Assembly: GCA_001724265.1 (NCBI GenBank)
Contig: MEDY01000062.1
Location: 1 to 64,000, forward strand
Length of the DNA: 64,000 bases
Reading direction: 5' to 3'
Source: Rhizaria sp. SCN 62-66
Lineage: Eukaryota
Positions 575 through 59,560 of the stretch are shown here, piece after piece. The notes under the pieces were generated by a model. That model saw nothing but the letters and a program-made list of their open reading frames with translations. It searched no databases and was not told where the DNA came from. How positions within the stretch are numbered: position 1 is the stretch's first letter; the number at the start of each line of letters is the position of its first letter. A program made the position numbers and the translations under genes.

Positions 575-2181
575 ATGAGTGCAATCCGCATTCAGGTTCG
601 GACCGAGACAGATCGCCACGTGCTGTCATCTCTTTCGGCTTCGTCAAGCATTGCAGACTTTATCACCGAGGTGCAAAAGACTTTCAGTACAGCGAAAACG
701 CTAGAGTCTGCGTCAGCAGGCTTTCCTCCCCAAGTACGTCGAGCGCTTCTGGCCCTAGCGCCGCATTGATAAGCTGTTTGCATCTTTGACTCAACTCCCA
801 AGTCTCGCGAATCAGTAACTTGTTTTGCTGCCGCACCTTAACACAAACAAAACAACATTCACACACATTGTCGCCCGCCTTTTGCCCATCTTTTTTTCCA
901 CAGCCATTGCCTCTGACGGACTCCACGCGCACTCTGGGCGACTGCGGGCTCAAGACTGGCTCCAGTGTTCTCATCGCTTTCCGCGACCCCCCCACGGACA
1001 CAGCTTCATCTACAGCCGCTGCATCCACGGCGATTTTGGCGCCCGGCTCCGAGCTTGCAACCACACTGCCCTCCGGTGGTGCAGCGGACTTATCTGTGTT
1101 GCCCGGCGCGCGTAAGCAAGTGCTCGACGACAACTCGTGTTTGTTCCACGCGGTCGCCGTCGCGCTCAGCCCCGCCGCCGCGGCGACGACGTACCTCGCC
1201 TCCTCCATTCAGCAGGCCAACAAGCCGCGCGCTGCGGGCAGTGTTGCTGTGCCCGCTGGCGTTGCCGTACTTACCTCGTTGCCCTTTCTGTAGCCCTACG
1301 CGTCCGCCGCCGCCCCGAACACCCCGCTGCCTTCGCTGGCCGCTCTCGAGGCCGCTGCGCCGACTGCGGCCGCGCGCGTCGCCGCGGCCCCGCCCACCGC
1401 GCGCGCGCTGCGCTCGCTCGTTGCACAGGCCGTGCGGCGCGCGGGCGCGGGCGCGGGCACAGCGGCGGCGCTCTTCGGCGGGGCCGAGTCCGGGCTGGCG
1501 CTGGCAGACGCGCTGGGCGAGCCCGCGGAAACGTACGCGAGCAACATCGAGGGCGGCGCGCGCTGGGGCGGCGAGATCGAGCTGCTCGTGCTCGCGCGTC
1601 TTTACTGCGCGCACATCCATGCCATCGACATCGAGACCGGCGCGCTGCTCTCGTACGCGCCCGCCGCCGCGCCAGTGCCGACCGGTGCGGCAGAGAGAGA
1701 GCGCGCGCCGTCGCGGCACATCGTGCTGCTATACTCGGGGCTGCACTACGACGCCTTTGTGCTGCGTGGTGCACCGGGCACCGCCGCGGCGTACGTCGCG
1801 ACCGGGGCCTCGGCCGCGCCGTCAGTCTTCCGACTCGACACCGGGAACGCGCCCGGCACAGACGTCTCGCTCTTCCCCGGCGACGCAGACGCGGCCGACA
1901 TGGACGCTGACGCCGGCGCTGACTCGGGCGCTGCAAGCGTGTCCGCTGGTGCTGCACCGGCAGCGGTGGCGTCGGACGTATCGGTGCGGTACGGCGTGCT
2001 GGACAAGGCGCGCGCGGTGGCGGCGGCGCTGCGCACGGCGGGCGGATTCACCAACACAAGCAAGTTCACGCTGCGCTGCGCGAGCTGCGGCGTGACGCTG
2101 CGCGGGCAGAAGGAGGCGCTGCTGCACTGCGCCGCCACGCAGCACAACAACTTTGAGGAGTACACGCCGCAACAACAGTGA
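575..2181 (+). CDS. OTU1: OTU1/YOD1-type deubiquitinase (ubiquitin-like N-terminus, OTU domain, C2H2 zinc finger), about 478 aa; exons 575-733 and 904-2181; in-frame TAG at 1291-1293
   Basis: Removing intron 734-903 (GTACGT...TTTTCCACAG, phase 0) gives GFPPQ|PLPLTDSTRTLGDCGLKTG. Catalytic DDNSCLF, then WGGEIEL, LLYSGLHYD and FTNTSKFTLRCASC...H...HNNFEE. ORFs 820..1293 and 1432..2181 are the same frame, separated only by TAG. Ends TGA. Confidence 0.9.
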
Positions 2182-2434
2182 ACATTCCGAGAACTGCAGA
2201 GAGTCGTTTCTTACAGCATCGCGTTCTGATTTGGCGCGTTTCTACTTAGTTTTGTGATTTGATTTAGAGCACCAACCTGGCCGCGCTCACGCGTAGGATG
2301 GAAATTATAGTAAGCTTAATCTATTATTCATTTTGTAGTCCATGGAGCGCACTTCGCGTTCTCAGCTAGGTAACCAAATAGTCGAAATAAATCAAGAATC
2401 TTCTGTTCATTTTAAACACGTTATTACAGTTCGT

Positions 2435-5400
2435 TTAATCGTCGTCTGAAGAGAAGCTGTGGAAAGATGCCTCGGAGCCGCGACCGAACACGGCGTCATC
2501 AGCCTCGGCCTGGAACGGGAACGCCGCCTCAGCGTCGACCAGCGCCACCGCGTGCGCGGCCGCGGCATCAGGACTGGGCGGCCCAGCGGCGGCGGCGGCG
2601 ACGGCGGTGTGGCGGGGAGCAAACGCGGCGGGCTCGGGCAGCGGCAGCGGGGGCGTGAAGTGTTCCTCCACCGACGCCACGGACTACACGGTGAACCCCG
2701 CAACAATAGCGGTATTGACAACAAGAGACGAAAGCATGGGTTCGAGAGGCGCCTGGAACGGATCCTGGAACTCATCCTCCTGCGGGTCATCATATTGCTC
2801 ATCGTCGTCATCATCGCCGTTGTTAGCAACGGCATCAGTACGGCCATCGTCGTTACCATCGTTGGTGTGGGACACGTAAGCAGGCTCAGTGGTCTCAACC
2901 TGCACACTTGCACTTAAGGTGCCAGCCTCACGCGCACCATCGCCAACGGCAGAGGAAGCTGCATCGCCAGGCGGCGTGTCGCCGGGCAGTGCGTCATCGT
3001 ACAGCGTGCTGTCGGAGAGCGCGTCGCCTGGGAGCTCGTCCGCGTACTGTGCCTCGGGAAGCACGTTGTCATCGTCGCCACCGACGGGGATGACGCTCCC
3101 GGGCAGCACGTCATTGGCCCACGCGTTCATGTCGTCGTCCAACTTACCGTCGACGCCCGTGTGCCTGCCAAAGCTGGCGTTCTCCGCACTAGGCAGGTGA
3201 GCGGTGCTAGCAGCACTCACAGCAGCGCCCGTGCCAGTGGCCACGTCCGCATCAGCACTGAGATTCCTGTTGGCGCTAACGTTGAACTCCGCGTCGACCT
3301 CGGCGTCCATGTCCATCATATCGTCCAATAGGCCCTCGAGCTCGGCGTCCAAAGGCGCGTCCGCGAGAGGAGCGTTAACAAGTGGCGCGTCCATAAGCGA
3401 CGAACCCGTAAGCAACAACGCGTCCTCGAGTTGTGCGTCCGCAACTTGCGCGTCTCCGACAGGCGCGACAACAGGGGTTTCAGATTGCTTCTCTGTCGCG
3501 ATCTCAAGCTGCTCGGTCGTGACAGCATCACTGGCCTCGTGACAGGGCTCTGCTGCGGGCTCATCTCCGCAACGCACCGCAGCAAGGGACTCATCATTGG
3601 GCTCGTCTGCCACAACAGCAGACTCAGCCGCAGTGGCAACGGACTCAACATCAAGAAGCTGGGAAGCGTCAACCGCATCTGCCTCCTCAACGGCGTCGTC
3701 GGATGCAACACTCTCAATCTCAGAGTGCGCGGCATTGTCGTCCATAGCCTCGCTAGGCATGAACGCGGCATCGACAACAGCGGCGGATCCAGCCATAGAA
3801 ACATCGCCGTGCGAGTACTGCTCTGCAGAATGAATCACGGGCTCAGGTTCCGCGGACCGCTGCGTCACCACGTCGGCACTCGCTACAGCATGGGAGGCAA
3901 AGTGAGACTCAGGAGCCACATCACCCACCGCGCCCGCGCGCGCGGCATCGAGCTGGCGCAGCGCAGCGTTGCGCTGTTGCTCAGCGACCGCACGCAGGGC
4001 CTGCGCCTCGTGCGTCGCCGTCGCGGCGCCGCGCAGCTCGTCAAGCAGCTCGCGCTCGCGGTCCACCGCGCGGTCGCGCACGGCCTTGGCACGTTCCTGC
4101 CACTTGTTCTTGGACACGGAGAGGTCCGTCACCGACTGCTGCAGGTCGCGCGTCAGCGCCGCGAGCTCCTCGGCGCGCGCCGTCACGTCGCCCACCGTCG
4201 CCGCGTGCGCCGCGGCCAGCTCTGCCGCCTCGCTCTGCCGCGCGCGGTGCGCGGCGACGAGCTCGGTGTGCGCGGCCTCGGCGGCGCGGGTCGCCGCGGA
4301 GGCGCGCTCTTCAGCGGCGCGCGCGCGCTCCTCGAGCGCGGCCACAGACTCAGCCGCAGCAGCGTCGCCGCGCTCAGCCGCCGCAGCAGCGCGGCGCTCG
4401 CTTGCGTCCGCGCGCGCCACCGCCTGCGCCGCCGCAGCCTCCGCCTGGTCGGCCCGCACCTCGGCCGCACGCGCGCGCGCCGCAAGTGAGTCCACGCGCG
4501 AGTCGCCCGTTTCCACGCGCGCGTCCGCGGCGGCAGCACGGCGCTCGGCGGCGTCTGCGCGGGCTTCCGCCGCTGCCAAGCGCGCCTCGGCCGAGTCGGC
4601 ACGCGACTCCGCGGCCACGGCGCGGGCCTCGGCAGACGCAGCGCGTGCGTCCAGCGCGGCCGCGCGGGCGTCGGCAGCCCGCGCCTGAGCCGCGCCGTCT
4701 GCGGCCGCGGCTTCGGCAGACTGCGCACGGGCCTCAGCCGACGCCACACGCTGCTCGGCCGCGTCGGTGCGTTGCTCAGCCGCGCCTGCGCGGTGGTCGG
4801 CAGCGGCGGCGCGTGTTGCAGCCTGCGCAGTGCTTGACTCGGCGGTCTCGGCGCGGGCTTCGGCGACGCGCAGACTGATCTCGAGCGCGGTAGCCTGCTC
4901 GAGCGCGGCCACCATCGCAGGATCAGGCTGCACGGCCAACGGATCAGCGGCAGCGGCGGCGGCAGCAATAGGAACAGCAGCAGTAGCAGCAGCAGCTGCA
5001 GCACGCGCTGTGGCTGCCTCGGTCGCCGCAGCCTCAGCCTTTGTCACAGCGGTCTTGATATTGTGATCGTAATCTTGCGCGCGGATCTCAACCTCTGCGC
5101 GCACCTCTGCGCATCTGCGCTGGAACGCGTCCGCACGAAGTGTGGCGCGCGCAGCGTAGATGTACAGCTTGCGCACCAGCGCGCGTGTCTGCTTCAGCTG
5201 CACCGTGGCCAAGAGCGCCTCCGAAGACGCCGCGAGCCGAGCGGACTCGGCACGCTCGCAGGCCGAAGCCGCCTGCGCAGCTGCAGCCTCGGCCTCACCG
5301 TGCTGCAGAATGGCCTCGTGCGCGGTGCGGCGCGCGGCCTCAAGCGCCACGCGCTGCGCCGCGCTGGTGGCCGCCGCCAGCGCCGCGTTGGACCGCAGCA

Positions 5401-8400
5401 CGTCGGCGTCGGCGGCCAGCGTGGCGCGCTGCGCGGCGAGCGCGGATCGCTCCGCGAGCAGCGCCGAGCGCGCGCTGATGTCCACGGCCGCGGCGGCGCG
5501 GAGCCCGTCGACGTCAGCCGACAGCGCGGCGACCTGGCTCGCCAGCAGCGCGTTGGCCGCCGAGGACGCCGTGAACCGCGAGTGCACCGAAGACTGCGAC
5601 GGCGACGGCGACGGCGGTGCACCGTACGGCGCACCATAGAACTGCATCCCGTAGCCGCCGGGGCCACCAATGAGCACAGCGGAGCCCGCATGCGGCGTGA
5701 ACAGCGCATTACTGTGCGCGTTGCTGTGCGCGTTGCTGTGCGCAAGCGGCGTCTGCAGCGCGCGCGGGTGCGGCGGCAGCAGCTGCGCGAGCGGCGCGTG
5801 CGCCAGCGCGATGTGCGCGGGGCCGCGCGCGGACGTCAGCGGCGCGTGTGGTCGGTGCTGCCGCGGCGTGTGCGCGGGCGATGACGGCACCGACGCCGGC
5901 GACACGCCCGCGCCCCCCGCGGCGCCGCCGGAGGACGACGACGACTGCGCGCGCGGCCAGCCCGAGAGCGATCCGCGCGGCAGCGGCAGCGCGTAAGGCG
6001 GGCTGCGGGGCGCAGTCGCGCCCGCGGCGTTTACGACCGACGGAGCGGGGGCGGCGCGCGACATGGCGCTCCCAACCGCTGCAGGACCGCGGCCGGGCGG
6101 GCTGCCCGCGGCGCCCAGAGACTTGTCGGAGACCGAAGTGCCCTGGTGGTGATGATCGGAGACGGAGGCGCCCAGCACCGGCAGCAGCGGCTGCGCCTGT
6201 TTCAGCGATGCCAGCGGCGGCGGCGGCGCGGCAACGGCAGAGAGCGGGGGCAGTGCTGCGCTCGCGACGTCGGGCGCGCTTGCGGGAGCTGAGGAGGCAG
6301 AGTGAAGCTCACCGCTGAGCTAGGGAGCCCAGGTGCCCCAGTCGGCTCTCATGTCCGCATCTGCGTCGGTCGCGACGGCGTGTTGCGCCACCGCGGCATG
6401 CTTAGCAGCAGCAGCTTCAGTGTCGGCGTCAGCCTTCGCCTTCGCGACAGCTTCTTCCTCAGCCTCTACGCGAGCGGCCTCAGCCTCCGTAGCAGCCTGC
6501 GCCTCCGCAGCAGCCTGAGCCTCCGCCTCCGCAGCCTCTGCGGCAGCCTGAGCTTCAGCTGCAGCCTTAGCTTCTGCGACAGCATTGGCTTCAGCCTCTG
6601 CAGCAGCACGGGCTTCAGTGTCAGCCTTTGCCTTTTCAGCGGCCGCAACCTCCACAGCAGCCTTTGCCTCGGCCTCAGCAGCAGCTTTGGCTTCAGCTGC
6701 TACTTTCCCCTCAGATTCAGCTTTCACAACAGCTTCCGCTTCAGCGGCGGCCCTCGCATCAGCCTCTGCCTCCGACTTGGCCTCAACCGCAGCCCTAGCA
6801 ACGGCATCCGCGGCCGCAGCGGCGGCGGTAGCGGTGGCTGCGGCGGCTTGCGCCTCAGCCTCTGCGGTAGCCCGCGCCTCGGCCTCAGCCGCGGCCGCTG
6901 CCCTGGCGTCGGCCTCGGCTCTGGCAGCGCGCGCGTTGGCCTCCACCAGTGCGCGCACCTCTGCGGCCGCGAGCGCCTCGCTGATGCTGCGCACCTCGGC
7001 CTCTGCCGCGGCGGCGCGCGCCTTGGCCTCGGCCTCCGCGGCGGCCTGCGCACCCGCGGCCGCCCGCGCCGCCGCCTCCGCCGCGGTCTTGGCCTCAACC
7101 TCGGCGACCGCGCGCGCCAGCATGTCGGCCTTGGCAATTGCCTCTGCAAGTGACACGGCCTCGGTCTCCGCGGCCGCGCGCGCCTCGGCGGCGGCGGCGG
7201 CGGCCTCGGACACGGCCTGGGCCTCCGCGGCGGCCTTGACGGCGGCGGCGGCGACGGCCTCGCCCTCGGCGCGGAGGCGTGCGGCCTAGGCGGCGGCCGC
7301 GGCGGCAGCGATGGCGGCAGTCTGAACACGCGCCGCTTCGTCCTCAGCCTCAGCAGCAGCGACAGCCTCAGCTTCAGTAGCAGCGGCCTCTGCAGCAGCG
7401 GCGGCCCCGACCCTGACACGTGCGGCCTCAGCTTCGACTTCCGTAGCTTTTGCCTCCGCAGCGCCGGCAGCCTCTGCAGCGCGTTCGGTGTCAGCGCACG
7501 CAACCTCAACAGCCTTTACTCCAGCATCCGAGTTGGTTGCACCAGCTCCAGGCTCGGTCGCGGGCACAGCGGCCGCTGCGCCGGTGTCGGTGTTGGCGAT
7601 GTGGTTTTTCTGAGTTGTATCAGGAGTTATCCAGCACTGCATGTCGTCGAAACCCCACATATCGTAGCCGCCTCCGCCGCCATACGCAGACTCGGGCGCA
7701 GCGGGTGCTGCGACGCGCGCGGCAGTGACTGGAACAACAACAGGGGCCACAGTCCAGGCGAAATGCGGTGCGGGGCCCTGTTGCAGAGGCGCGTCAGCAA
7801 CGGTCGCGCTGTCCTCAACAACTGATCTTTGAGTGTCTGCATTAACAGCGGACACTGCCACATTTGGCTCCGCAGCAGCAGCAAAGTCTTCGCAAGTGGG
7901 CGGCTCAGTAGCAGCAGCCTGAGACACTGCGGGCTCAGTCAGAATGGGCTCAGACACAGCAGACTCAGGAGAAGTAGGCTTAGTCACGGTGAGCTCAGTG
8001 ACAGTGGACTCAGGCACGGCCGCAGAGCCCATGAAAGCTACCCACGGGTCAGTCCAGGTCTCAGTCTCAGCCGCCGTCGCGGCATCAGAGCCTGCAGTAG
8101 CAGGAGCGTAGTCCGTGTTAGCTGCGCCCGCAACCGTGAAAGCGGCCCAGGGGTCGTCCGACAGCGCGCGCGCGGCAACAGGGGCGGCAATCGCGGCGTT
8201 CATACGGGCTTTGTCGTTCGCACTAGCATTATCGCGAGCAGCGTTACCGTCGGCACTGAGGGGCACACCACTGTCAGCTCCCCAAACATCGGCCACCTGA
8301 GCATCGTCGTCAAATGCGTCAGTGTCAACCTCGCCAGCCACTTCAGAGGAGTTGTCTTCGTCGCCGCCCTCGTCGCCCTCGTCCTAGTACTCGTCTTCCC

Positions 8401-9253
8401 ACTCGTCAGCATCCTCGCCAGCATCCGACTCAGCCTCAGCCGCGCTGTCCGCAGACGCGTAGGGCTCGTTGCGTGCGGACAACTCCTCAGCGTTGCTGTC
8501 GGGCAAGTCCGACGGCTCGTAGTGCGCGGGCTCTGCTGCCGCCTCGGGCTCGCTACGTGCCATATGAGCAATGTTCACAGCAGCAGCAGCAGCAGCAGCA
8601 ACAGCGTCGTCGCCACGGCGGTGGCCATGATGAGCAGTGTTGTCGTCCTCGGTCACTGCAACGTCGATGCCGGCAAAGTTCAGCAGCGGCACCGCGGCCG
8701 CGACCGGGCTAACACGGCTTCGCTGCGCAGAAGCAGCGTCAACGCTATTGTCTTCGTCAGAGGATACGGATGACGGCACGGAGAATGAATCTTCCAGATC
8801 GCGGTCGCGGTCACCATCGTCGTCGATGTCATCGTCAACGTCGACATCGCCGTCGTCACCGAGATAGATGTCGGAGCCGCCCGCGGTGCGGCCTCGCACA
8901 GCGCCGCCCGCGCTGGCGCGCGCACTGACAGTGACAGTGGCGTTGGCGGTAGCGTCAGCATCGTTGGCGGGCGCGTTAGATTTGCGGACATTTCGTGGTG
9001 TGGCGTGCGCGCTGGAGCCGGTGGAGAGCGCGTCTGCGAAGAGGTCGTCTTCAGAGGAGGCGTCTGCCGCGCCACTGCGCAGTTGCTCAGGTACTTTAAG
9101 TTCGCTGGGGAGCGTTGTAGAGAACGTTGCGTCGATGAACACGGTGTTAGGTGCGAACTTCTCTGGCGAAAGCACTGGCGTGCCGAACTCTGACTCAGGG
9201 GCGCTCCTGGGAGCGGTTGCAAAGTCCCCAAGCGGAATGGGCACAATGTCCAT
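2435..9253 (-). CDS. Giant low-complexity Ala/Glu-rich coiled-coil protein, about 2272 aa if four in-frame TAG codons are read as sense
   Basis: ORFs 8384..9253, 7286..8341, 6320..7213, 2684..6178 and 2435..2680 share one frame. Each internal break is a single TAG with coding-like sequence on both sides; the final stop is TAA followed by AT-rich sequence. Confidence 0.78.
6400..7500 (-). repeat. Degenerate coding repeat (AAAEAEA/EAKAAAE-type helical units)
   Basis: Translation shows many imperfect Ala-Glu units; boundaries approximate. Confidence 0.75.
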
Positions 9254-10025
9254 TGTGACAAAACCCTAACTGCACGGGTGCCAAGCTGAGAGACTCAACA
9301 ACGGACGTCTTGACGGTCTACGGGCTTGTGTTGCGGTAAGGTCAGATCAAGATTCGATGAAGCTGCGGCGCGGGGATAGACAGAGCCAGGTGTTATGGGT
9401 TGTGAGAGATAGAAAACGTAATATCGTTATATTATTTTAATAAGCACCGCGCACATCATATTCAAGAGTTGCCCTTATTCGTCAATGTTTGAGTTCTGTA
9501 CATGCATATGTCTTTATCCGCTGCTCCACAGTCACAGCGACGAGCCCACTCCTCCTCTCGGCAGCAAGACTACAAGACGACGTCTCTTCAATGTCGGCAT
9601 GCTTTGTACATTGCTGAGACAGGCGTATTCACTGCGAGAATTTGAATCGGACTGTGATCAACTCACGGTATATGGTTTTCAAATTTATGGGCCATTCAGG
9701 TTCCGTTCATGCGATGAATTATTGGTTTTGTTATAGCCAGGCGTCACTCTCGAGAGGGCGACGCTTGTCTCGCCATTGCCTGCCCATATCTTCATAGCAA
9801 CAGAGCTCGAGGCGATGTAGACCCTTGTGAGCTCATCAAGCTCTACTTCAATTCGCATCACTAAACTCAGTTTATTCACATCACATTCTATCACCCTGTT
9901 TCTAACCGCTTCATTCGGTCATTCCTTTGTGCGCACGCAGCTCCTTCAAACCTTCCTTCGCTTGGTATAGCACAACCAAATAGGATAAACCGAGCTTGAG
10001 TTGAGCTTAGGCCGATTTAGCAATC

Positions 10026-12844
10026 ATGTCTGAAGTGGTAAGTGACATTAAATTCCAGATGGACTTTATTTGAACACATCTTCTCCACCCCTTTCCGCCA
10101 CTCCTTCATCCTCACCACATTTTTGTTTCTCCTTTCGATATCTGTCTCCTCCCTCACAGCGCACGGGCTACCTGTACCTGTACACGCGTCTGCGGCAGAA
10201 GTGGAACCGGCGCTACTTTGTGCTGACGACGCGCGACCTGTCGTACCGCACGAGCAAAGACGTGCTGAACTCGCACATCGGCACCATCGACGTCGAGGGC
10301 GCCACCGTGTCTGATATCTCGACGCTTAACGGGCGCAGCTGCGTCTTCACGCTCACGCCCTCCGCGGGCGGCTCGATGCAGTTCTCCGCGCGCACCGAAG
10401 GCGACGCGCGGTCCTGGATCGCGGCGCTGACGAACCCGGGCGGCGCGCCTGTCTCGTCGGGCGACCAGGAGGACCTGGGCGAGGAGTCGGCCGCCGGCAA
10501 GAACGAGGGCCCCACGACGCCGATGCCGACCTTCCACGCTGTGTCACAGGGCGTCGCCGTCACCATCTCGCCCTCGGCCTCAAACGTTTACGGCTCTTCG
10601 TCTCCGGCCTCGGGTGGCGCCGCGGCCCCGGCCTCGCCTAGCAACGGCAACGGCGCCGCCGCCGCGTCTCCCAATAGCGGCGGCAACGGGATCCCGCAGA
10701 CCCCCGGCGGGTCGCGCGCGCTGACGTACGTGTCCCCGCTTTCGATGCTCATCTCCACGCAGGCCGACACGGCCGCGTACAAGCTCGCGTGCCGCCACAA
10801 GGGTCCCCAGCGCTTCGAGAAGTCATGGAAACTGAAGCTCATCAACGCCAACCTCAAGTCGTCTCGCGAGTACCAGGTGTGCCTCATGGCGCCCGCGCGG
10901 CAGCTGTATCTGTTCAACTCGGAGCGCGAGCTCACGGTGTACAACGCGACGGGCAAGCGCACCTTCTCGCAGGTGATCGAGCTCAACGGCGGCATTGTGA
11001 TGCAACAGCCGTCGTACGCGTGGGTGGGCACGTCCCCGCCCGCATCGGCCGTGCCAATCGTCGAGGTGCTACTGCCCGCGGGCGTGCACTACTTCACGGC
11101 CGACGCGGCCGAGGACCTGGAGCAGCTCACGCGCGCGCTGCATGACATGGCGCTGTTGCCGGCCAAAACGAGCGACCGCGCGGTGATGATCAAGGGCGAG
11201 ACGCACTGTGCCACCGTGCTGGGCAAGCACGGCTGGCTGGATCTCAAGGTCAACAAGAAAAAGTTTCGTCGCGCCTTTTACCGCACGCTGGAGAACGCGC
11301 GCGGCACGCAGCTCATCGCCGAGTACGCGTCGCCGACTGCGATCCACCCCGAGATGTTCATGTTCCTGCTCTGGTCCTCTGGCGAGGGCCCGTGCAAGGT
11401 GCTCCGCGGCCTGCCGCCCGGCGACGCGTGGGCGGCGTCGAACCCCGAGGACGAGAAGCGGTGCTTCACCGTCATGGCAGGCGCCGTGCGCATGACGCTG
11501 CGCGCCGAGACCGAGGCCGAGCGCGACGAGTGGGTCGCCGTCATCCTCTCTATCGCCTGCGACGACTTCATGACCACGCCGCTGGGCGCCAGCTCCGGCG
11601 TCGACTACTACGGCGTGCTGGGCGTGCCGCCCAACGCGACGGCCGGAGACATTGGCAACGCTTTCCGCCAGCTCGCGAAGCTCGTGCACCCGGACCGCAA
11701 CCCGACCCCGGAGGCGCTGGCTCACTTCCAGCGGCTCAACGAGGCCTACGAAGTGCTCTCGGACCCCGCGCAGCGCGAGACTTACAACGGGCACCACGCC
11801 GCCATGGTCGCGCGCAAGCTCGCGCTCGCGGGCGCGGGCTCCGGCGCCGGCGGCCTGCGCGACGGGCTGCCTGTGATCCAGAAGAAGCGTCCCAACCGCA
11901 TGCCGATGGTGGCGCCCAACTCGATCTTCGTGCCGGCGTCGCTGGAGCAGACGCTTATCTCGCACGAGAAGCTGCAGGCGCTCATGACCAAGCACCAGAA
12001 GCAGGCCAAGAAGCTCGGCAACGAATCGGCCGACTTCGTGCTCCCGTCCATCGCCAACGTTCGTCTCGCCGGCTCTGACGTTGGGCTTGACTACGACGAC
12101 GAAGGGCACGAGAATAACGCCGAGCTCGAGGCCAAGCGCGCCGAGGCCGAGCGCGAGGCCGAGGAGGCGGCCCGCAAGGCCAAGGCCGAGGCGCAGGCGC
12201 GCCGCGAGGCCGAGGAGCGCCGTCTGCGCGCCGAAGAGGAGGCCAAGGAGGCCGCGCGCCGCAAGCGCGTCGAAGAGGAGCGCCAGCGCCGCATCGTCAA
12301 GGAGCGCGAGGAGGCCGAGCGCCGCCGCCGCGAAGAAGACGAGCGCCTGCGCCGCCTTGCCATGGACCCGATCGATCGCCCGCTGAGCAACGACCTGCTG
12401 ACACAGCTGGAACGCTTGGGCAAGGGCGTCACGGCCGTGCGCGTGCCAGACTCGAGCTTCTCCAAGCCCTCGGAACTGTCGCTGCGGCTGGAGCGCGCCA
12501 AGCTGCCGACGGACGCACCCGTGGTGCTCTACACAGTGGCCTATACTTCGAGCAAGGACAAGGTGGACCGGCGCGTGTTCGTGCTGCCTGAGTGCACCTT
12601 CAGCAAGGCGCTGCCGCCGAAGACGAAGCTGCCCAAGGAACTGTCGGGCCGCGAGGAATTCGTGCTCTACGTCGCGCCCGACGCCAAGAAGGAGTTCGGC
12701 CCCAAGGCCTCCGTCTTCGTCTTTGCCAACGGTGAGGCACGAGACGCCTTCTACGACGCGATCCAGGGCGTGCTCACGAGCATGCTCGCCACGGCGGAGA
12801 AGCGCCCCACCGCTGTCAACATGCGCAAGTACGTCGACATGTGA
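10026..12844 (+). CDS. Multi-PH-domain + DnaJ (J-domain) + coiled-coil protein, about 898 aa; exons 10026-10037 and 10160-12844
   Basis: ATG TCT GAA GTG then intron GTAAGT...CCCTCACAG, joining to RTGYLYL..KWNRRYFVL..FSARTEGDARSWIAAL (PH). A further PH runs KHGWLDLK...LRAETEAERDEWV, with a possible third between them. J-domain DYYGVLGV...HPDRNP...FQRLNEAYEVLSDP. Ends TGA. Confidence 0.85.
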
Positions 12845-13187
12845 GTGCGCCGCAGCGTGGGAAGCGTGTGTGCGACGTTGAGTGGTGCGGAGAGACTGAA
12901 ATAACATCGCGACTGTTTTTGTGAAATGTGCGATGATGCTTGCCGCCTCCCTTTTAAAAAGAAATTCACCAAGAGAAGAACCAGCTATATTCGTAATTTG
13001 GAGTCGATGTTCTTGTGTACAGCTAGTAATCGTGTTGTTGTCGCATTGATTATTGGTTTACATCTGTTTCTGTATTGTTAAAGTAATACATTGTTTCTAC
13101 GTATACGTTTGTTCACAGCCAATACGTGTCAAGTTCTCATCATGATCAATCTTGCTGCTCTTAGTTACACGTCGTCCTCACTCACAT

Positions 13188-14182: not shown

Positions 14183-14688
14183 TTCAAATGACGACCGAAC
14201 AATTGCACACACAGCCGATTTTAAAGTCCTATCTCAACAGCGCCACAGTCGGAGCCAACGGATATTTTCACTGGACATGCACAGATCATCACATAAACAC
14301 ACCTCTATCACTTGACTCATTGTTGAAATCAATTGCAGCGTTAATATATCATCGATATTGCAGGAATGACATCATATGTATGTGTACAACACCTAAATAT
14401 CACGAAGAGAAATATACAAATCAAGACTGTTTCGTCACTTGCAACAACAATGTGAACATACCTACTTAAGGATATACGAACAAGAAACAGAGCAAGTCCG
14501 GTTACTAGACACAGTAAAAAACACACACCATACAACGCACGTCAACAGCATATATTTTCATTATGCAGTCGAGGCGTTCAAAAACAGCAACACAACAACA
14601 GAACGTACGACGCAACACTGGATTGCATCAGACTCTACAAGACACCGGCGGGCAGTTTAAGCAAAGAGCCCGCTTGTTTCCATGGCGT

Positions 14689-34009: not shown

Positions 34010-34048
<39 letters not shown>

Positions 34049-37061: not shown

Positions 37062-37093
<32 letters not shown>

Positions 37094-44658: not shown

Positions 44659-45038
44659 ATATACCCTTCCTTGTGGTAGTTTTGAGCGGCTATAGCGGAA
44701 GCAAAGTGGGCGGTGCGTGGCACGAAAGTAAAGAAGAGTTCAAGATGGTTAGATTGATATTTAAGATATGTTGAAACAGTATAATTTCGAAAACACTCTT
44801 GTATGTGCCATATCCAAATTTGAACGTGGTTAGCGAACATATGGTATCGTATCAAAGCACATGAAGTTTAGGTAGCTAGCGGACCACACTGAACTCCCCG
44901 CTGGCCGCTCGAACGAGTGCTGGGTGAGGACGACTCGAACGCAACTTAAAACCTCGCTGAAACGCGATTCAACATCCGTTACTGAAGTGTTTATAACGAT
45001 AACAAGTTTGACTTGGGCGTTATAACATTTTGTGAAAA

Positions 45039-48000: not shown

Positions 48001-48276
48001 CCCGAGCAGGGGTTCGCGCTGTGCCCGCTCGTGCAGTGGCTCGAGGCGCTGACGCTTTTCGCGCCACGCCGCCGCAGCTTTGACGCTGATCTGGGCTCCT
48101 GGAACGGCAACGCTGCGCTGCGCACGCCGGCTGCACGTGCCGCGGCGCGCAAGCCCACTGCGGCGACGCTCGAGGCTGCTGGCGCGGAGTGGCACGCTGA
48201 GCAAGTCATGGGCTTCGGCCGCGAGGCCTCCCAGTTTGATTTCCGCTGCGGTACGCCCGCATTTATGAACACTTGA
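45039..48276 (+). CDS. Secretory-pathway histidine acid phosphatase, about 1005 aa; exons 45039-45221, 45335-45398, 45506-48276
   Basis: Signal-peptide-like N-terminus. Exon 2 encodes [17 protein letters not shown] (RHGxRxP). Exon 3 has [33 protein letters not shown] and VRVVYNG. Both introns begin GTACGT with compatible phases. Ends TGA. Confidence 0.88.
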
Positions 48277-48694: not shown

Positions 48695-51575
48695 TTAAGG
48701 CAGATCGGCCATGTCCCAGCGCTCTTCGGCTTCCTCGCGCTTGCTGCCCTTGTCTGACTTGCGCTGCTGTTGCTGTTTCTCGTTCTCGCGCAGCAGTCCG
48801 CGGGGCGTGCCGTCACGACGAGGTGTGCGGTCAAAGAGTGCTTTCTCATCGTCCATACCGGCGTCCACAGCACGCAGCGAGTCGATCGTGCCTTCGTCGA
48901 ACATTGCACGCAGCCGGGCTGCCACTGCCGGGGACACGCCTTCGATCTCACTACGGCGCTCGCGGTCAAGCTCGCTGCGACGCTCAGGAGGCATGTCCGT
49001 CCACTTAGTGCCCTTGCTCGTTGTCGACGACGTCTGCTCGCGATCACTCATGCTTGCAGAGTCGCGGCTCTGTGACTTGCTGAGAGGCATGCCACTCCAG
49101 CTGCGCTCGCGCGGGTCGCGCTCGGTGGGGAACGGGATCCACGTGCCTGACACCGCGTCGCGGCTCTGCGGATACTGGCGGAGGAACGCATCCTCGTGGT
49201 AGGCGGTCCAGTGCTCGCGCGACGGCTGCTCAAGTCCTTCGCTCGAGCCTGTGCTGCCGAGGCCCTGCAGGCGCTGCTCGCTCTCGCGCTCACGGCGCGC
49301 GGCCCAAGGGTTGATAGCCTCAAAGCGTTCAAGCTCAGGCGTAACACCAAGACTGCGGCGTTGTTCACGCTCGCGTGCAGCAAGGTCGCGGGCAATGTTG
49401 CCCTCAAGCGATCCCGCCACGCGTTCAGCAGCGCGCAGTACAGCGCCGGCCACACCGCCTGTATGACGCATTTGACGCAGAAAGCCGCGGGCCTCAGCCG
49501 GAGTTGCACGCTGCTCGCGACGCCCCTTTGCTCTTGCGCCGTCGTCATCAACAATGTCGTCTTCGTTAGCCGCAGGTGCACCTTCAAAGGGGTCACGGTC
49601 CGTCATACCGCGGGAGCCACTGCTGTAGGTTGTACCCTGCAGGCCGCGCGAGGCAGTGCCAATACTTTGCGCGTTATAGCGCGGGCCACTCTTGCTTGTG
49701 CTGCCAGCGCCCGTGATGGCGTCACCGAAGCGGTCAACGAGACGATCAACAACACCGACGCCAACGTGGCCCAGCTCGAGCGGGCGCCCGCGGTCATCGT
49801 GCTCACCCGCGCGTGCGGAGCCCGTCTTAGGGCCGGACTGCAGTGCACGGCGCGCGGACTCGCCAAGCGCGCGCTCAGCGGCTTCAATGCCACCACCGGA
49901 GCCGAAACCAAACCATGTCTCCTCAGGTGGACTTAGCTCTTGCTGACGCTGGCGACGTCCTTGTGTGCTCTGCTGTTGCGTAATATCAGTACGCGCGGCG
50001 CCCTTGTTTGCGTTGTCATTGCGGCTAAACTGTGGCATGCTCGCGGCTTGTAACCATTCAGCGTGCCCCTCTTCAGCAGAGTCCCACGCCTCGCCCCAGC
50101 TTTCAGTCGGCATTAGCGGACTTGAGGCAGTGCGCGCACTACTGCCCATATTGCGCTCATTGCGCGAATTACGCTGCGAGCGCATATCACGGTCCGAGCG
50201 CAAGTCAATGCGCGCGCTGCGATCAGAGCGCTGGCCTTGGTCCGAGCGCGGGTCGTGGTCATAACGCATCATGTTGTTGTTCTGCTTGCCGCCGTCAACA
50301 CCCCTGCCGCGCATGTTCCGATTGGAGCTCGCACTAAGATCGCGACTAGCAGCCTCGTTACAGCCTTCAACATAGCTCTCTTGACTTTGCCCACGGTGCT
50401 CAGCCGCCTCCCAAACGTGGTCGGGGTTTGCGCGCTCACTAGTGCTCCTATAGACTTGGTCTTCGTGCTGTCCCTGCGTTGTTGAACCACGCTGCTGCTG
50501 GTTGTTGTACTGCTGGTTGCCTTGTGTGTAGTTGCTATAGCGCTCGCTCATTGTGCGATCGCTCTGCTGCTCCATGCTACTGCTAGCGGGGGTACGGTCG
50601 AGGTTACTCCGCATTGGACCGTTGCGCTGCATCATTGCGTTGTTACCACGCTCAAAGAAACGCTGGTCCCCGCCGCGCGCGTTACTGTACCGAGAATAGT
50701 CGTCGCGCTGCATTGCATTGCGGCGGTCGGCGTCGCGTGAGATTAAGTGCTCACTTGGCGCAGCCGCACTGTAGCCGTCACGGCGACCAAGACCAGCGGC
50801 GTGAGTGTAGGCGTGGTCACGCAGCACGCGCTCTTGGCGGTCTTCATGCGCGTCTGCGGCGGCGTCGTTATGCAGAGTCCATTCAAGCTCGTGAGCGCGC
50901 TCGCCTGTGCTTGTCAGCGGCACGTAGGGGAAGTTGCCTGCTACATGCTGTTCGCGGTCCTGCGCCATTGCTGCCGCGCCGTTGCCGAACTGCGCCCCAC
51001 CGGCAACGTGATGATACGCACGCATGGTGTTCTCGTTGAGCCGGTCAATCTCGCGGGTCTGTTCATTGTTCTTCATATTTGCGGTGCTCTTGACCTGACT
51101 GCTATTGGCGTTATGAGAGCTCTCGTGGCTGTGATGATCACCAACAGTGCGAGCGGTCCACGCGCACTGCTCGGCGTCTTGCATATTCATCTCACCATTG
51201 TGCCAGCTGCCACCAGCTTCGCGTTGAGCCGCGCGGTCGTGCTTGCGCAATGCCTGATCACGGCACCAAGACGCCGCAGCGCGGTCGCGGCCTCCGTCAG
51301 CAGCTGTCCTCGCAAACATATCGTCCATCTCACCCAGCGTCTCTTCCGCGCGCGCATCAAAGAAAACCTCCGGCGCAGTTAAAGCCGCGCGAGCAATAGG
51401 GCTGGGCCGCGCAGACGCTGTACTCCGCGAAGCTGTCTTGCTCGAAAACATATTTTCGAGTCCATCTTTTTGCTGCTGCTGTTGCCACTGCCACTGTTGC
51501 TGTTGTGACTTTTGCTGTTGCGGTTGCTGCTGTTGTTGCGAGCGTTGTTGGTGTTGCAGCTGCTGAGGCTGCTGC

Positions 51576-51617
<42 letters not shown>

Positions 51618-53419
51618 AAGGAACCCGCACGCAAGCGCTCTGCCTGTACGTTAGGACTCGCAGTTGCACTACTGCCTTGACTTGCGTTACTTCGGTGCGC
51701 TGAACTCACACCCTCGCGCAGAATGGCATTGCGCATCTCGAGCTCATCAGTAACAGCGGCTGCCCGCGCGCTGTGCGGAGGCGCCGTAACGTTGTCCATG
51801 TCCACGCCGCCAATAACCAGGCGCGCCCCTGCAGCCTCGTGGTCGGCGACGCTATTCTTGGCGACCGCCTGCGAATGCATTGCGGCCGTAGTGTGCGCTG
51901 CGGCGCCGAGACGCGGCACGGGCGCATCGCATGAGTCACCACCACGCGAGCTTAGCAAGCGGCGCATCACCTCCTCAGACATGGTTCCGTTGCTTACGTG
52001 GCCTTGACTCTGGGAAGACTGAGGACTAAGCTTCTGCTCTTGCTCGCGCCGCTCGTGCGGCAGCGGCAGCTCCGAAGAGCCCCAGCCCCGAAGGTCTTCG
52101 TCCTTGTCAGAGCGGCCGGCCTCTATGTCAGCGCGTTCAGCGGTCATGCGCGCGCGCTGCTCGGCGCGGCGGCGCTCGCTCGCGGCGCGGTCGCTCTCCT
52201 TGCGCGCCGCTTGGCCCTCCCATCCACGGAGTCCCTGTGATGCCGCCATGGCGTGCTCGCGGTCGCTGCGAACAACTTCAGCACGGTAGCTGTCAGTGCT
52301 GCGCTTACCTGCCCCCGATGAGCCCAACCCCTGCGAGCGCGTGCGGTGCTTTGCTCCGCGCTGCTCGCGAGTAAAGGCCGTGTCGTCGTCAATCATGAGC
52401 CTGTCCGCGGCCTCAGGGCTGGTCTCCAGTTCGCCACGATTAGTGTCCATTGCGCGAAAGACAGGCACGCGTTCTTGCACTTCCCGCTCACGCTCGTAAT
52501 CGTTCTGCTCTTGCGTATGGCGGTGTGACTCTTCTTCATTATGAGCCCACTCGCGCGCCCAGCGCTCGGAGCCGCCACTGCGTACGTGCTCTTTCTCGTA
52601 CAGGTCGTACTCGGCATCGGCGCGCATCTCGTGCTCATGGTCACGACCTTGCTCACGGTCAAGCTCGCGGTCACGCTGGCGTGCAGCGGCGTCGCGGCCG
52701 TAGCTGTGACTCGCGTGTGCGCGTTCCTCGTCAGCACGCTCGGCGGAGTCGAACATCTGGTACCGCCACGGCTGGCTGTACAGTGATGTTGGGCGCGCAG
52801 GCTCGCCCTCACGAGTGATTACAGGCGGCTCAACCTTGCGCGCGTCCTTGGTGCCGCCACCGCTTGCGTCCTTAGCTGAGGACACAGGCTTGGTGCTTGC
52901 AGCAGTAACGCGTGCGCCGCTGGGGCGCGTCACAGCGCCCTCGAGTAGCTGTTCCGCCACCGTGGACACGCGCTGCTCGCTAAGAGCAGCGACTTCAGAG
53001 ATCGGGAGTCCGCTGGGAATGCCTTGCTGCCGAGACAAAGGCGCAGTGCCTGCTGCCGGTGAGCGCATGTGGAGCTCGTGGTGCTTGCTTGAGGGCCCGG
53101 TACCAGTGGTGCGCATATCGCTTTCGCGCATGTAGTGGCCGCCTACCACAGATCCAGGCACACCAGGGGCACTGTCACTAGATTTTAAGGCGGTGGCAGA
53201 GCTAGACGCCGTCGTTGACGCGGGGACCGAGTGCGATCCGTGCGTGAGGACTACGGGGGAACCGGTGCCTGGTGGAGCTCGAGTTGAGGATGTCCCGTGC
53301 AGCGCTGCGGTCGTGGACTTAGAGGTAGACCCAGAAGCGGATGAAAAAGACGCGGACGCAGTCTTAATTGTGTTGTGCAGGCTTTGAACCTGCGTCATGA
53401 GCCGCTTTCGCGTCGACAT
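48695..53419 (-). CDS. Large hydrophilic low-complexity protein of unknown function (1574 aa)
   Basis: Long uninterrupted ATG..TAA ORF bounded by AT-rich spacers; R/E/S/Q-rich with a polyQ tract. Confidence 0.8.
51578..51616 (-). repeat. (CAG)13 coding microsatellite (polyQ)
   Basis: Perfect (CTG)13 on the + strand. Confidence 0.9.
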
Positions 53420-53937: not shown

Positions 53938-56900
53938 TCACAATTGAATCTTCTTTTGCGCAGCACGGCGTTGGCGCACGATGTCAACAACAGCAGCCTG
54001 GACCGCGGACGCAACAGCGGGCCGCAGCCACCAGTCAGCGCGCGCCTGGCGGTCACTCTGAGTCTCCGCACCGGGTTTTGCCGCGCGCACTTGCACGGGC
54101 TGCATCCAGGCCCCGCTTGCAGCCGCAGCGGCGGCGGCTGCGGCAGCAGCGGTTGTTGCTGGTGAGGTCTTGGTGTTGCTGCTGTTGCTGCTGCTGCTGC
54201 GCGGGCGCGGGTTGGACGCAGTCGACGCGTAGCGGCGCGGCTGCCACAGCGGATGCGTGTGTGATGTGCTGTCAACCGCAGGCAGCGCGTTGACACCCGC
54301 GCCGCTGCTGTGCCGCGCTGTCTGCGCGTGCACCCCCGTCTCCGGCGCGCGCTCAAAGTACCCCGGGTGCGCGTACTCGCTCTGCCCGCGCCCGCTGATC
54401 CCGCTGTCAAAGTGTGCTGTAGCATTGCGTTCCTCACTGTACGCGTGCTGTTCAATCTCGCGCGTGCCTTCGTCGCTGCGCTGCATGCGGGTCTCACTGC
54501 CGCCTCGGACCGCGCGCGCGGCCCAGGCGGGCGGGAATGCGGATGTGCCGGGCGGGTTGATCACTGGCATCGGCAGCGGCGCGGGCGGGACCGGCGCGCC
54601 GCGGGGCGTGTTCGCGCGCGTCGGCGTAAGGTAGCCGCGCTCGCCCTCGTACTCGACCCACGGGCCGTTGTGCTCGCTCGACTCCGCCGACGCAGACGTT
54701 GACTGCGGTTGAGGTTGAGGAGTGCGCTCATTTGACGGGCGGCGCCACACACCACCGGAGGGCGGCGGCTTTGGACTTGCAGCACTGCGGGCCGGGGCGC
54801 GTTGTTGAGCACGGCCAACGTTGCTGCCGCTTACGGAGCCGGTGTGGCGCTTCTCCTCGATGATGGGACAGACGTCCGGGTTCGCGGCCATCGCGGCAAC
54901 TTCCTCCTCCGTGCTGCTCATGCGGCCGCCTTCCGTCATCCACTTGCTCTCTTCGTAGCTCAGCTTCGTCAAGTGTGCCGTCAGTGCGGGCGCGGCAGAC
55001 TCACAGTCAGCAGCGTCCAGCTTGCGCTGGCGTTCTTGCGCCGAGCGCACGTTGTAGTCCACGACGCCGCGTGCGCTGGCGGCGCTGGGAGGCGAGTACG
55101 CGCCGCGTGGGAAGGCCTCGACTCCGGCCATTGCGATCTCGCAGTCGAGCTGGCCCATCGAGTCGCTTGCGTTTACAGGGCCAGTCTGGAACCCGCGCCC
55201 TGCGCGCTCAGCGGCTGAGAGTGAGGCCATGCGCGCAGTGTCGGCGCGCGCCTCGCGCTCAGCGAGCGAGCCGCGCGGACCTGTCCACACCGAGTCTGAG
55301 CGCTTGCTCTTGTCGGGCGCGTCCGACCAGTACGACGGCGCGCGCGTGGCGGGCGCCGAGCCGCGGGGACCCGCGTCGCCGGCGCCGCGCGTGTGCACAA
55401 CGTTGACGCCGTCGCCGTTGGCGCGCGCGTCCTTGAGCATGAACGAGCGCGCATTGTAGTCGTTGTGCGCATCCTTTGGCACGCCGTTATTGAGGATCTC
55501 TTCAGGCGACAGAATCGGGAAAGTTTGTGCGCGCTGCATGCGCACGTCATGCATGCTCTCAGCACGCGAGACCTCCAACGGCGTTGGCTGGCGCTCGCCG
55601 CGCGCGATCGCCTGCCAGCGGTGCTCTTGATCGCGCCAGTGCTGCTCGCGCGCGTGCCAGCGCTCCTGCTCAGCCTTCATGTCGCTAGAGGTTGTCGCTG
55701 CGGCGATAAACGGCGCAGTTGCCGCGCTGCGTGCCTTGTTCAGCAAAGCAGCGTCAGTGCCTTCCTTAAGCAGAACACCGCGCATGCATGTCTCCTCTTG
55801 CGCGTCCGCCGTGCGCCGGTTTGCGTGCACAAGATCGTCAGCGATAAGCTCAGAGCCGTAGATCGGCGAATACGTCTCGGCGCGGATGAGCTCGTCGAGA
55901 TAGCGCTCGGTCTCCGGCGTCATGGGCCGCGTGTGCGCCACTTCCTCCCACGCTGGCAACATGCCTCGCGAACGTGTCGCGCTAGCAGCAAGCGTGCACT
56001 CCTTGAAGCCTTGCTGCGCAGCTTTGCTCATTGCCTCAGGCGACGCAGTGCCGGCCTTTGTTGCAGGTACAGGCTTGGCAGCTGTTGCAGCCTTGTCACT
56101 GTCCTGGCCCTTGGAGTAGCCGTTGGTGTAATGCGGCACAGGGTCGGCCGTCGCCTCCGCCATCTGCACCAGCGTGCTCTCGTGATGTTCTGGCATCACG
56201 GTCGACGCCGCGGTCTGTGCGCGCGGCATAACAGGCACGCGCGTAGGCTCAGCGCGCTGCTGCTGCTGTGGCTGCTGTTGCCGCTGCTGCTGTTGCGGCC
56301 GCTGTTGCTGCTGCCAAGACGCCGGTTGTTGTTGCTGACGCTCCGCCCTGGGATGCTCGCGCTGGAACTGCTGCTCCTGCTTGATCGCAGAGAACGGCTG
56401 GCCCGGCTTTGCCTTAACCCACTCGCGGCCTTCTGAGTCAGTGCGGCTCTGCGTCAAGTCGCTTTGCGTTGGAGTAGTGTCACTGGCCTTGTCACCGTGG
56501 ATTGCGCCCTTGACCGCCGCGCCTTTCATGTCGTACGCAGGCCACACGGTCTCGTGCGGCGGCGGGAGCTCCGCAGCCAGCGCTTCCTTGGCAGCCTCAG
56601 GCAACTTGCGGGTTGCACGCGCCACTGCTGCTTCCCCGCGCTCAAGCACCGCCTCCGCGGCGTCAGCGATGCCACTCACTGTGTTGGCCACACCCGCCCC
56701 TACGGCGCCCGCGGCGGCGGCGCCGGCCATTGCGAGCGCGGCGCCCGTCTCGCCCGCAGTGCGCACGGCTGCGTGAAGCACGTCCTTGGCGCGCTCGTCG
56801 CGCTCGGCCTGCCGCTGCGCCTCGCGCCAGCGCGCGCCCACGCCCGCGGGGCCCCCGGGCGCGTGCACCTGTCGTTGCCACTCGCGCGCGCTCGCGTCGC

Positions 56901-59560
56901 CAGCGGCGCCGGCGGTTGGACTGGAGCTGCGGCGCACGGTGACTGAGACGGAGTCAAAACGCGGGATATTGTCTTCGTAGATCGGGCTGTAGTCCTCGTT
57001 GAAAAGGAACTCGCGGCCCAAGCCGGTGACGCGTGACGCGGTGCCTGCGGGCGGCGGTCCACGTGGAGCCTGGCGCGCACCTTGCGCCGCTGCCTCGGCC
57101 TCCATCGCCATTGTGCGCGCCGCGCGGGCCTTGATGGCGGTGCTGCCGTACGCGCTAAACGTGCTGTTCTGGCTCTGCGCCACTCTGCTTCCCGCGCTGC
57201 CTGCGCTGCCCTCAATGCGGTTGATGCTCTCGGCAATGTTGTCGTCGCCGTGCAGGAACTGGCCCCACTCCTTTGCGTTGACGTGTGTGTCTGCATAGCC
57301 GTTGTCGTTGTGGAAGCGCGGAATGTTGTCCTCGTAGATGGGGCTGTAGTCCTTGTTGAACATATGCTCTTTCTCCCGCGCCACTGCGTGGCCCGTGTCC
57401 GGCACACCGTCGCCCTCGCGCTTGCCCGCCGCAGCTGCCGCGCCGATCGCAGTCGCTCGCGCCACGTTGTTCGCGTGGTGCTCGCGCTCAGCGTCCGCGC
57501 GCGTCATCGTCGGCCGTGCGTTGTAGTAGTAATCGCCGCCGCCCGGACGGCTGGCGCCGAGCCCGGATGAGCCCGTGCCTGCACTGGTGCCGGTGCCCGC
57601 GGCGGCTGTTGCGAACGCGCGCGCCGGCGCCTGTCCAATGCTGTTACGCGGCGCTGTTGTATCGACCTGGTACTGGGGTGGCGCACCGTTGTTCTTTCTG
57701 CTCTCTAAGCGGTCACAGGCCGTGCTGTTGCGGATCATCTTGGTTGCGTGCAGATCGTCCGCGTGGTGGTACTCGACGTCGCACTGCTTTACGTGCGGCG
57801 CGCACGACGCCGCATGCACGTCGCGCGCGCACTCGTCCTGACCCGACAGCGGCTGCGAGGGCAGCGTCGGCCGCAGCAGTCGCGCGGGCTTTTCCATGCT
57901 GTAGCCGCGGTCAAGCGAGCCCGTAAAGGCGCCGCTGCTGCCGCCGCACTCGTCCTCCATGCGAGCGCCAGTCTTCCCCTCACCACCGTTGTGGTGCTCG
58001 GCGGCGTGGCCCGACGCCGGCGCGGGCGAGGCTGCGGCTGCGCTAGGAATCGCGTGCTTGCGCATCGCGGCCAGAGTGTACTGCGAGCACGCGTCGGCGC
58101 CGGTCGCACCGCTCGCAATCGACTTGGCGTACTCCCGGTTTGCCTGCTCGAAGCGACTGTCAACGTCGCGGTTTGCGGGCTCAGCGCGGAATCGCTGCCC
58201 GGCCCTGAGCGACTCTGCGCCGGCCTCAGCGTCCGCGCGCGTAAGCCCGCGCGACGCAGCGGAGACGGATACGGGCCCACGCAACATTGCGGCCTCGGCG
58301 GTGGCCTGCATGATTGCCGCGGGCTGCGCCGAACACACCGCGGCCGCGACGCTCGATGACGGGCCCTCGTGCGACGTAGCGGGCGCTGCGGCGGGCGCGG
58401 TGTGGTGCGACTGCTCCCACTGTTCGCGGCGCCCGCGCTCAGCGGCGCGCGCGCGAGCCGCGCTGTCGTGCAGCTGGCCGTCGCTCGCGTGCTGCAACGC
58501 GTAGTCAGCTACCTCGGTGTGGCCCAGCTTGCGATGCGCTTCACGCCACGCGGCCTCGTTCTCCGCGCGCATTGCAGCGTTGTACTCCTCAGTCAAACCA
58601 GCTTCGCCCGCGTACCTCGCGCCCTTAAATTCGCGCGGGCGCGCCGCCATCTCTCGCACCGCCGCGGTAACGCTAGCCGCGCGCGCGGGGTCGATGAACT
58701 CCCAGTACGCCGCGCGCACGGCCGTGCTGTCGGCGTAGCGCGGGGACTCAAACCCGGCGGCCTCGCGCCGAATCAGCGGGTGCAGCCGCGTGTGTCCGCG
58801 GGCCAGCGCGGCTCTCCGCACGCTGCGCGCGGTCGGCGCGCCGGACGCGTCGATGGCGGGCGTGTGCGGGTCCTGGCGCAACGACTCGACTGTGAGCAGG
58901 GCGCGTCCCGTGCGGGCCCGGTACTGCAGCGCGCTCTCGCCAACATGCGGCGCCATTGAGAGCACGTCGCCGTCGCGTCCGTGGCCCGCGGCGAGGTATG
59001 CCGCGCGCAGCTCGGCCGTGGCGGCGTCGTGGCCCTGCGCCTCGCCGCCGCCGCGCAGAGCGGCGACTTCGCCCGCGCCGACGTCGGCGTCGGTGAAGAG
59101 CTTCGTCGAGGGAGCGCGCTCAGGAAACGGGTCCGCGGGCTCGGTGAGCGCGGAGAAAACGCTGCGGGCTCGGGCTGCGATGGCGGAGAAAGGGGACGGA
59201 GTGTGCGAAGCGATGGCGGACGGTGCATGGATGGTGTGGATATCGTGGTGGCTCGTGTCGCGCGCAGAGGACTCGAAATCCGACGCAGCCTTAGAGGGTG
59301 ACGGAAAAAAAGTATCGGGTGGCGTAGTAGGGCGTTGTGACGCGCTATGCTGAGATGTGGTCGCGATCTATGAGTGCAAATGAAGGATGTGGGTGTGAAT
59401 GAAGCCATGTGAGCGAGACAACTTGAAGATGCGGGAAGGAATCGCGAGCGGGATATAATGAGAGCCAGCGTACCAATCGCGTTGTCACCGGGACAAAAGG
59501 GGCAGCGCCAATAATGTTGGCTCTGCGGCACGCCCGAGAAATAGCTCTCGCACGTTGCAT
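53938..59560 (-). CDS. Large low-complexity protein of unknown function, about 1838 aa; exons 59560-59474 and 59367-53938
   Basis: The frame of ORF 53938..58965 stays open upstream to 59367. A phase 0 intron 59473-59368 (GTACGC...TCATAG) joins MQRARAISRACRRANIIGAAPFVPVTTRL to IATTSQHS. Ends TGA. Confidence 0.78.

Follow-up and report, generated by a model that had tools for sequence, protein, structure and literature searches.

Does UAG specify an amino acid in the organism behind a contig in which TAG codons interrupt otherwise intact genes? We examined this for a 64,000-nucleotide stretch of DNA recorded under Rhizaria sp. SCN 62-66 (contig MEDY01000062.1, assembly GCA_001724265.1, positions 1 to 64,000; hereafter the window), for which a prediction made from the sequence alone had proposed a nuclear code with UAG read as sense and UAA and UGA kept as stops. 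UAA and UAG are nearly always reassigned jointly, nuclear codes that treat them differently being very few. Our favored reading, which we consider probable, is that this DNA comes from the nucleus of an uncultured rhizarian, GC-rich and on a long branch, that uses UAG as a rare sense codon and ends translation at UAA and UGA. The proposed UAG-only reassignment stands as the best-supported reading on the grounds of base calls, coding-likeness and pseudogene arithmetic, and, at one site, of splicing and editing; it does so with the encoded residue left unnamed and with an intron reading available for one TAG.

In-frame TAG codons and gene ends

All six predicted TAG codons, in three genes, were found at their positions: 1291–1293 on the plus strand, and 2684, 6320, 7286, 8384, and 43726 on the minus strand (CTA on the plus strand). 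With TAG as sense, the frames join into 790–2181 (+), 2435–9346 (−), and 42298–44739 (−), with zero frameshifts. Gene structures were built by hand as 14 models comprising 17,510 codons, the MTR4 model extending beyond the 64-kb window. These contain six in-frame TAG codons and neither TAA nor TGA, bearing out the claim that frameshifts and internal TAA or TGA are absent, and a small 15th gene (35174–35690) contains none of the three; TAG thus occurs in 3 of 15 genes. TAG was also said to be very rare; it occurs less often than even the least used ordinary codons in the count (TAG 6, ATA 7, AGA 16, TTA 18) and is absent from the conserved genes of the window.

The 14 visible gene ends comprise eight TGA, six TAA, and zero TAG, in agreement with the prediction that no visible end uses TAG. 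UAA and UGA behave as stops, both being used at gene ends and neither being seen within the 17,510 codons. Tandem stops close two genes, TGA TAA at 42014–42019 (+) and TGA TGA at 25103–25108 (−).

The TAG-free genes of the window served to train a codon model, with which we scored the sequence around each TAG. The 30 codons 3′ of each TAG scored +0.44 to +1.69 log-ratio per codon in frame, positive at all six sites, whereas the score after true gene ends was negative for 12 of the 13 scored. The upstream sequence is likewise coding-like, so the claimed coding-like flanks are present on both sides, and none of the six TAGs is followed by a non-coding gap. The TAGs are unlikely to be the 3′ ends of long introns: coding character extends upstream of them, and in-frame donors there are few and differ from those of the window, where GTACGT is usual; at TAG 7286, the 200 nt upstream hold zero in-frame GT(A/G) donors.

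Genes carrying TAG

The gene at 575–2181 (+; ATG at 575, GT..AG intron at 734–903, TGA end) encodes an OTU1/YOD1-type deubiquitinase, whose product matches the Pfam family zf-C2H2_OTU1_C, weakly OTU, and the OTU1 structures 3by4 and 4boq in PDB. It is 47% identical to a protein of a sister species (P0123). Its single TAG (1291–1293) lies within a lineage-specific insertion, also present in the sister protein, between the DNSC and HYD motifs, which we take to carry the catalytic Cys and His. Termination there would therefore split the active site, leaving the catalytic Cys on a product that lacks both the His and the zinc finger, and the motifs downstream are conserved as in the sister protein. 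The sister species is colinear across the site, with ACT (Thr) at the opposing codon. A structure prediction made without an alignment was unusable (pLDDT 37). The intron at 734–903 is missing at the same place in the sister locus (L002, 2110–2717), a difference that appears to be a recent intron gain or loss.

Four TAGs lie in an orphan gene of 2272 codons at 2435–9253 (−; ATG at 9253, TAA end), whose product has an acidic N-terminal part and Ala/Glu-rich repeats. They occupy codon 290, within an acidic D/E tract (8384–8386), codon 656, in the context A-x-A-A-R-(L/V) (7286–7288), codon 978 (6320–6322), and codon 2190 (2684–2686). The product has no Pfam match, and no ortholog was found for residues 2–1108 among 1.84 billion representatives. 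The first 1107 residues gave 92 matches, two of them its own fragments and 90 weak ones over the Ala/Glu-rich part, the two best of which were rejected as orthologs, being unrelated repeats.

The sixth TAG is codon 311 (43726–43728) of a 786-codon orphan gene at 42298–44658 (−; ATG at 44658, TGA end). This product also has no Pfam match, and an ortholog search among proteins of 432–1376 aa returned only its own second half. Gene products of this organism are now stored as fragments, split at each TAG: the product ending at TAG 8384 is present on seven contigs, two look-ups found exact products in 7 of 10 and 3 of 10 cases, and cluster members spanning a TAG were absent from them.

TAG codons in other DNA and RNA

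The window or part of it is present in 11 of the 13 listed runs, from seven studies, and four runs contain at least half of its words. We aligned the contigs of four runs on window positions 300–20200, leaving out the possible source run; differences and pieces are those listed, and TAG-site variants of related strains may be missed. Run X3 belongs to a different study from the possible source run, and its contigs cover TAGs 1291, 2684, 6320, 7286, and 8384 with zero other letters; run X4 has the same letters at 2684. Base-call error, for which a check had been proposed, is thus rejected for these five sites. A metagenome scan gave 217 pattern matches that reduce to two loci, one of the same organism inside the window (L001) and the 2.7-kb sister locus L002. 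The former is a copy of window 420–4316 with a single difference at its final base, and may derive from the data of X3. TAG 43726 lies outside the aligned stretch, and its sole check is the exact 310-aa product ending there, found on four contigs, some of them possibly re-assemblies of one data set.

The TAG codons belong to the genome itself and are fixed from sample to sample; their frames run on unbroken and coding-like, and the 14 gene ends lack TAG.

In a polyA library (run X5), a contig spanning 6230–6544 at depth 4.3 bridges TAG 6320 with zero other letters and zero gaps; a second contig ends 15 bases beyond TAG 2684 and was not counted as bridging. Cover by this library is zero in two mostly non-coding bins, but one contig (12872–13176) lies between two genes, and an RNA origin of the library's contigs is settled by neither observation. 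The proposed transcript check for splicing at the TAGs is therefore answered in part: TAG 6320 appears unspliced and unedited, at one of six sites and in a library that may contain DNA.

These data bear on restorative RNA editing, in which DNA stops would be edited in mRNA (A-to-I, turning UAG into UGG for Trp, or U-to-C, giving CAG), perhaps in one life stage. Such editing is known from the filamentous ascomycetes Fusarium and Neurospora, where premature UAG is corrected and the mRNA reads UGG in the sexual stage (PMC11156358; here and below, published systems are compared as described in the accessible parts of the cited papers). The two cases are alike in that few genes are affected, frames are intact, and UAG is the only interruption; rare TAG-only interruptions without frameshifts are what editing predicts, and Trp occurs near two of the TAG sites. 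The window differs in that the polyA-library contig retains UAG at 6320 and the sister residue at 1291 is Thr, not Trp, a comparison of two sites and one library. Editing would also leave the absence of TAG ends unexplained, and we regard it as very improbable.

Chance, decay, and partial termination

At the codon usage of the window, TAG makes up 64–68% of single-step nonsense changes. If gene ends used TAG at its non-coding share of 0.20, all 14 would lack it with P 0.045; across assumed TAG shares of 0.3–0.1, P is 0.007–0.23. This test and that of all interruptions being TAG are each weak alone. Four neutral nonsense changes in the 2272-codon gene would require ∼180 substitutions, during which the probability of no frameshift is 0.09, 0.002, and 6e-6 at assumed indel-per-substitution ratios of 0.02, 0.05, and 0.1, respectively. 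Taken together, the chance tests favor sense UAG without proof.

Several observations weigh against this reading. Six TAGs out of six interruptions would arise by plain nonsense mutation with P 0.07–0.10, and zero TAG ends in 14 has P 0.23 if the TAG share is only 10%. Four of the six TAGs fall in one orphan gene, a caveat raised earlier that proves correct and that has P 0.02–0.03 against uniform scatter. The whole case consists of six codons in one 64-kb stretch, chosen out of a large scan, and its RNA support is a single contig at depth 4.3 from a library that may contain DNA. UAG is far rarer here than in the published UAG-only codes of the rhizarian exLh and of phyllopharyngean ciliates. 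None of the six TAGs stands at a conserved column, as had also been cautioned, which leaves the standard reassignment test without an answer. The sister locus has no in-frame TAG in three gene frames, the sister MTR4, OTU1, and kinase products are called unbroken, and the sister Thr codon at 1291 is more than one step away from TAG. Finally, positions 1267–1293 of OTU1 form a possible 27-nt GT..AG intron, with a GTACTT start, a pyrimidine run, and TAG as acceptor; the nine codons within it score −0.05, intermediate between coding sequence and introns.

This 27-nt intron could compete as a reading for TAG 1291 only. Its start resembles the usual GTACGT donor, and one other intron of the window ends in TAG; introns elsewhere in the window measure ∼105–170 nt, and the sister is colinear codon by codon across all 27 nt and shares V, T, S, and F there, both of which argue against it.

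An account under the standard code would treat the whole pattern as a coincidence. The 2272-codon gene would be undergoing decay, or nonsense alleles that became fixed in a clonal lineage would have truncated it; TAG 43726 would be a further nonsense allele or a true end before a second gene, TAG 1291 would be the acceptor of the 27-nt in-frame intron, formed from exon, and TAG would be an uncommon terminator. The majority share of TAG among nonsense changes, the concentration of TAGs in a single gene for which no ortholog was found, and near-identity across studies are all as expected under this account. It must nevertheless accommodate a 2272-codon frame that has four TAGs but neither a frameshift nor any other stop, and the lack of a non-coding gap after any TAG, and it demands three independent accidents in 15 genes in addition to zero TAG ends in 14. 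We judge it unlikely.

A further alternative is that UAG still terminates but is read through efficiently inside genes by a suppressor or near-cognate tRNA, as an intermediate or position-dependent code. A TAG count below that of any ordinary codon counted and the absence of TAG from conserved genes are what inefficient decoding would give, and zero TAG ends is compatible with a low share of TAG at ends. That same zero among 14 also stands against an ambiguous UAG, and read-through would have to be nearly complete, approaching full reassignment, because four TAGs in one gene compound termination. We hold this alternative to be decidedly improbable.

Residue and mechanism

Because no TAG stands at a conserved column, we leave the residue encoded by UAG unnamed. 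The sister Thr at 1291 appears uninformative on this point. Summed neighbor-context scores were +1.1 for Glu, +0.7 for Leu, and −5.1 for Gln, the last skewed by poly-Gln tracts; we rejected the context model as a residue determination, as it recovered the true residue in only 12–67% of six-site draws. In the A-x-A-A-R-(L/V) context of TAG 7286, Glu occurs twice in repeats of the same protein. Context thus leans weakly to Glu or Leu. We would tentatively place Glu first among the candidates, with Gln and Leu ranking equally behind it as uncertain possibilities, and Ser, Tyr, Trp, or Lys, taken together, doubtful.

By analogy with exLh and Iotanema (PMC5304391), the most likely mechanism would be a CUA-anticodon tRNA that decodes UAG together with an eRF1 that recognizes UAG poorly. 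Such a tRNA would be one mutation from a standard tRNA and unable to pair with UAA. UAG may first have been lost at gene ends and then have re-entered weakly constrained protein regions only. The rarity of TAG and its absence from conserved genes are in keeping with a codon that a GC-rich genome disfavors or has captured only recently. The 64-kb window contains no tRNA gene, and eRF1 is not among its genes.

Comparison with known codes

The statement that UAG-only codes are known, as Gln in Iotanema, as Leu in a rhizarian, and in some ciliates, matches the accessible text of two papers (PMC5304391, PMC11687900). The closest case is the rhizarian exLh (Sainouroidea), in which UAG encodes Leu and UAA and UGA are stops (Panek et al. 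2017, PMC5304391). It resembles the window in belonging to Rhizaria (here by MTR4), in having UAG as the only in-frame stop codon and only UAA and UGA at gene ends, and in avoiding UAG in conserved or highly expressed genes. In contrast, exLh has 384 UAG codons in 71 genes, many at conserved Leu positions, against six in 15 genes and zero at conserved columns here; gene ends are UGA:UAA = 15:56 there and 8:6 here; and exLh is insect-dwelling (PMC5304391), whereas the DNA of the window occurs in bioreactor, wastewater, and activated-sludge runs.

Iotanema spirale (Fornicata) reads UAG as Gln, with 204 UAG codons in 126 genes, ∼8% of its Gln codons (PMC5304391). It likewise uses UAG alone as sense and as a minor codon, but belongs to an unrelated lineage; TAG in the window would be 0.9% of Gln codons, and Gln has the lowest context score. 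UAG is also reassigned alone in five phyllopharyngean ciliates, with suppressor tRNAs found in two genomes (2024, PMC11687900, where Protocruzia and Scotinosphaera are cited as well). These changes were similarly inferred from genomes or metagenome bins; UAG there occurs in 78–91% of genes and UAA forms 87–98% of ends, compared with UAG in 3 of 15 genes at 65% GC here.

The literature searched, which covered few subscription journals, gave no second rhizarian with an altered nuclear code, and the accessible passages of a Saccharomycomorpha genome preprint (10.64898/2026.07.16.738196) do not mention the genetic code. In that literature, exLh, an uncultured insect-dweller, is the sole rhizarian example (PMC5304391). 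The window probably adds a case to a rare type of code that is already known, and stands out by how seldom UAG is used; its rhizarian placement fits, Rhizaria being a supergroup with a published UAG-only code (PMC5304391).

A more specific version of sense UAG, which we find rather doubtful, is a second independent rhizarian code change caught early, with UAG just captured, possibly as Glu, at <1% of the codons for its residue, UAA still a stop, and a sister species (∼72% identical in MTR4) that may lack the change. UAG as Glu with UAA kept as stop was not met in the literature searched. If this were the case, a free-living wastewater protist and its sister would bracket the moment of stop-codon reassignment. 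More generally, the organism would offer a test of how stop codons disappear from gene ends and are then recaptured, whether by codon capture or through an ambiguous intermediate, and of the changes in tRNA and eRF1 that make this possible.

Source organism and sister species

The DNA of the window has 65% GC and GT-AG introns of ∼105–170 nt near gene starts. For placement we used the MTR4 RNA helicase (60031–64000, +), which has zero TAG in 1323 codons. A careful tree was built from 29 rows selected among the 120 matches listed; MTR4 sits there on a long branch, in a group with Plasmodiophora and ten further unnamed environmental proteins (support 100/99). A quick tree of 56 rows gave the same grouping with support 99. 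The source organism therefore likely belongs to Rhizaria, a grading that reflects placement by one gene with one named rhizarian. We infer a position in Cercozoa; the 120 MTR4 matches listed include no named filosan. A sister MTR4 in Joint Genome Institute (JGI) data is 72% identical. A viral scan with MTR4 gave 0 of 2, and a prokaryote-genome scan with the kinase of the window gave seven loci, all in bacterial records.

The matching runs sample bioreactors, wastewater, and activated sludge; a run with a share of 0.18 (X6) holds short matching pieces only and provides no habitat evidence. Contigs from separate studies are letter-identical over kilobases (window 420–14237), which suggests that the source organism is a protist that is near-clonal and widespread in engineered water systems. 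Beside the identical contig, X4 and X5 also carry contigs of a related strain or species ∼92–95% identical to the window (10687–11377, 15829–16174, 12589–12640, 13436–13484, 14889–14971, and 18313–18400), differing at 35 of 691 and 27 of ∼346 letters. This recurring, GC-rich bioreactor and wastewater rhizarian with a close sister is a candidate for binning or culture.

Other features of the window

The NDR-type kinase at 21755–23062 has a sister product (P0224) that begins at the position of residue 91 of the window's protein, past two upstream Met residues; this late start could be due to an intron, to the end of a contig, or to a stop in frame shortly before it. Long Ala/Pro/Ser-rich insertions swell conserved proteins of the window (25106–34456 (−), 36350–42016 (+), 14689–18684 (−), 45376–48276 (+), and 60031–64000 (+)), including a TBC protein (1331 aa), a His phosphatase, and MTR4. 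Two further swollen proteins, of 1888 and 3116 aa, are presumably CDC20-like and RGS plus PTEN-like, respectively, going by their motifs.

In the EBP gene, a 28-nt intron was considered and rejected, as one ∼136-nt intron preserves the frame. Two adjacent long orphan genes, at 48695–53419 (−) and 53938–59367 (−), encode hydrophilic Gln/Arg-rich repeats. The latter is ATG-free for 137 codons following an upstream in-frame TAG, which is probably a splice acceptor. Between 23060 and 25100, ∼2 kb without a long frame contain short GC-rich patches that are possibly small exons or untranslated regions.

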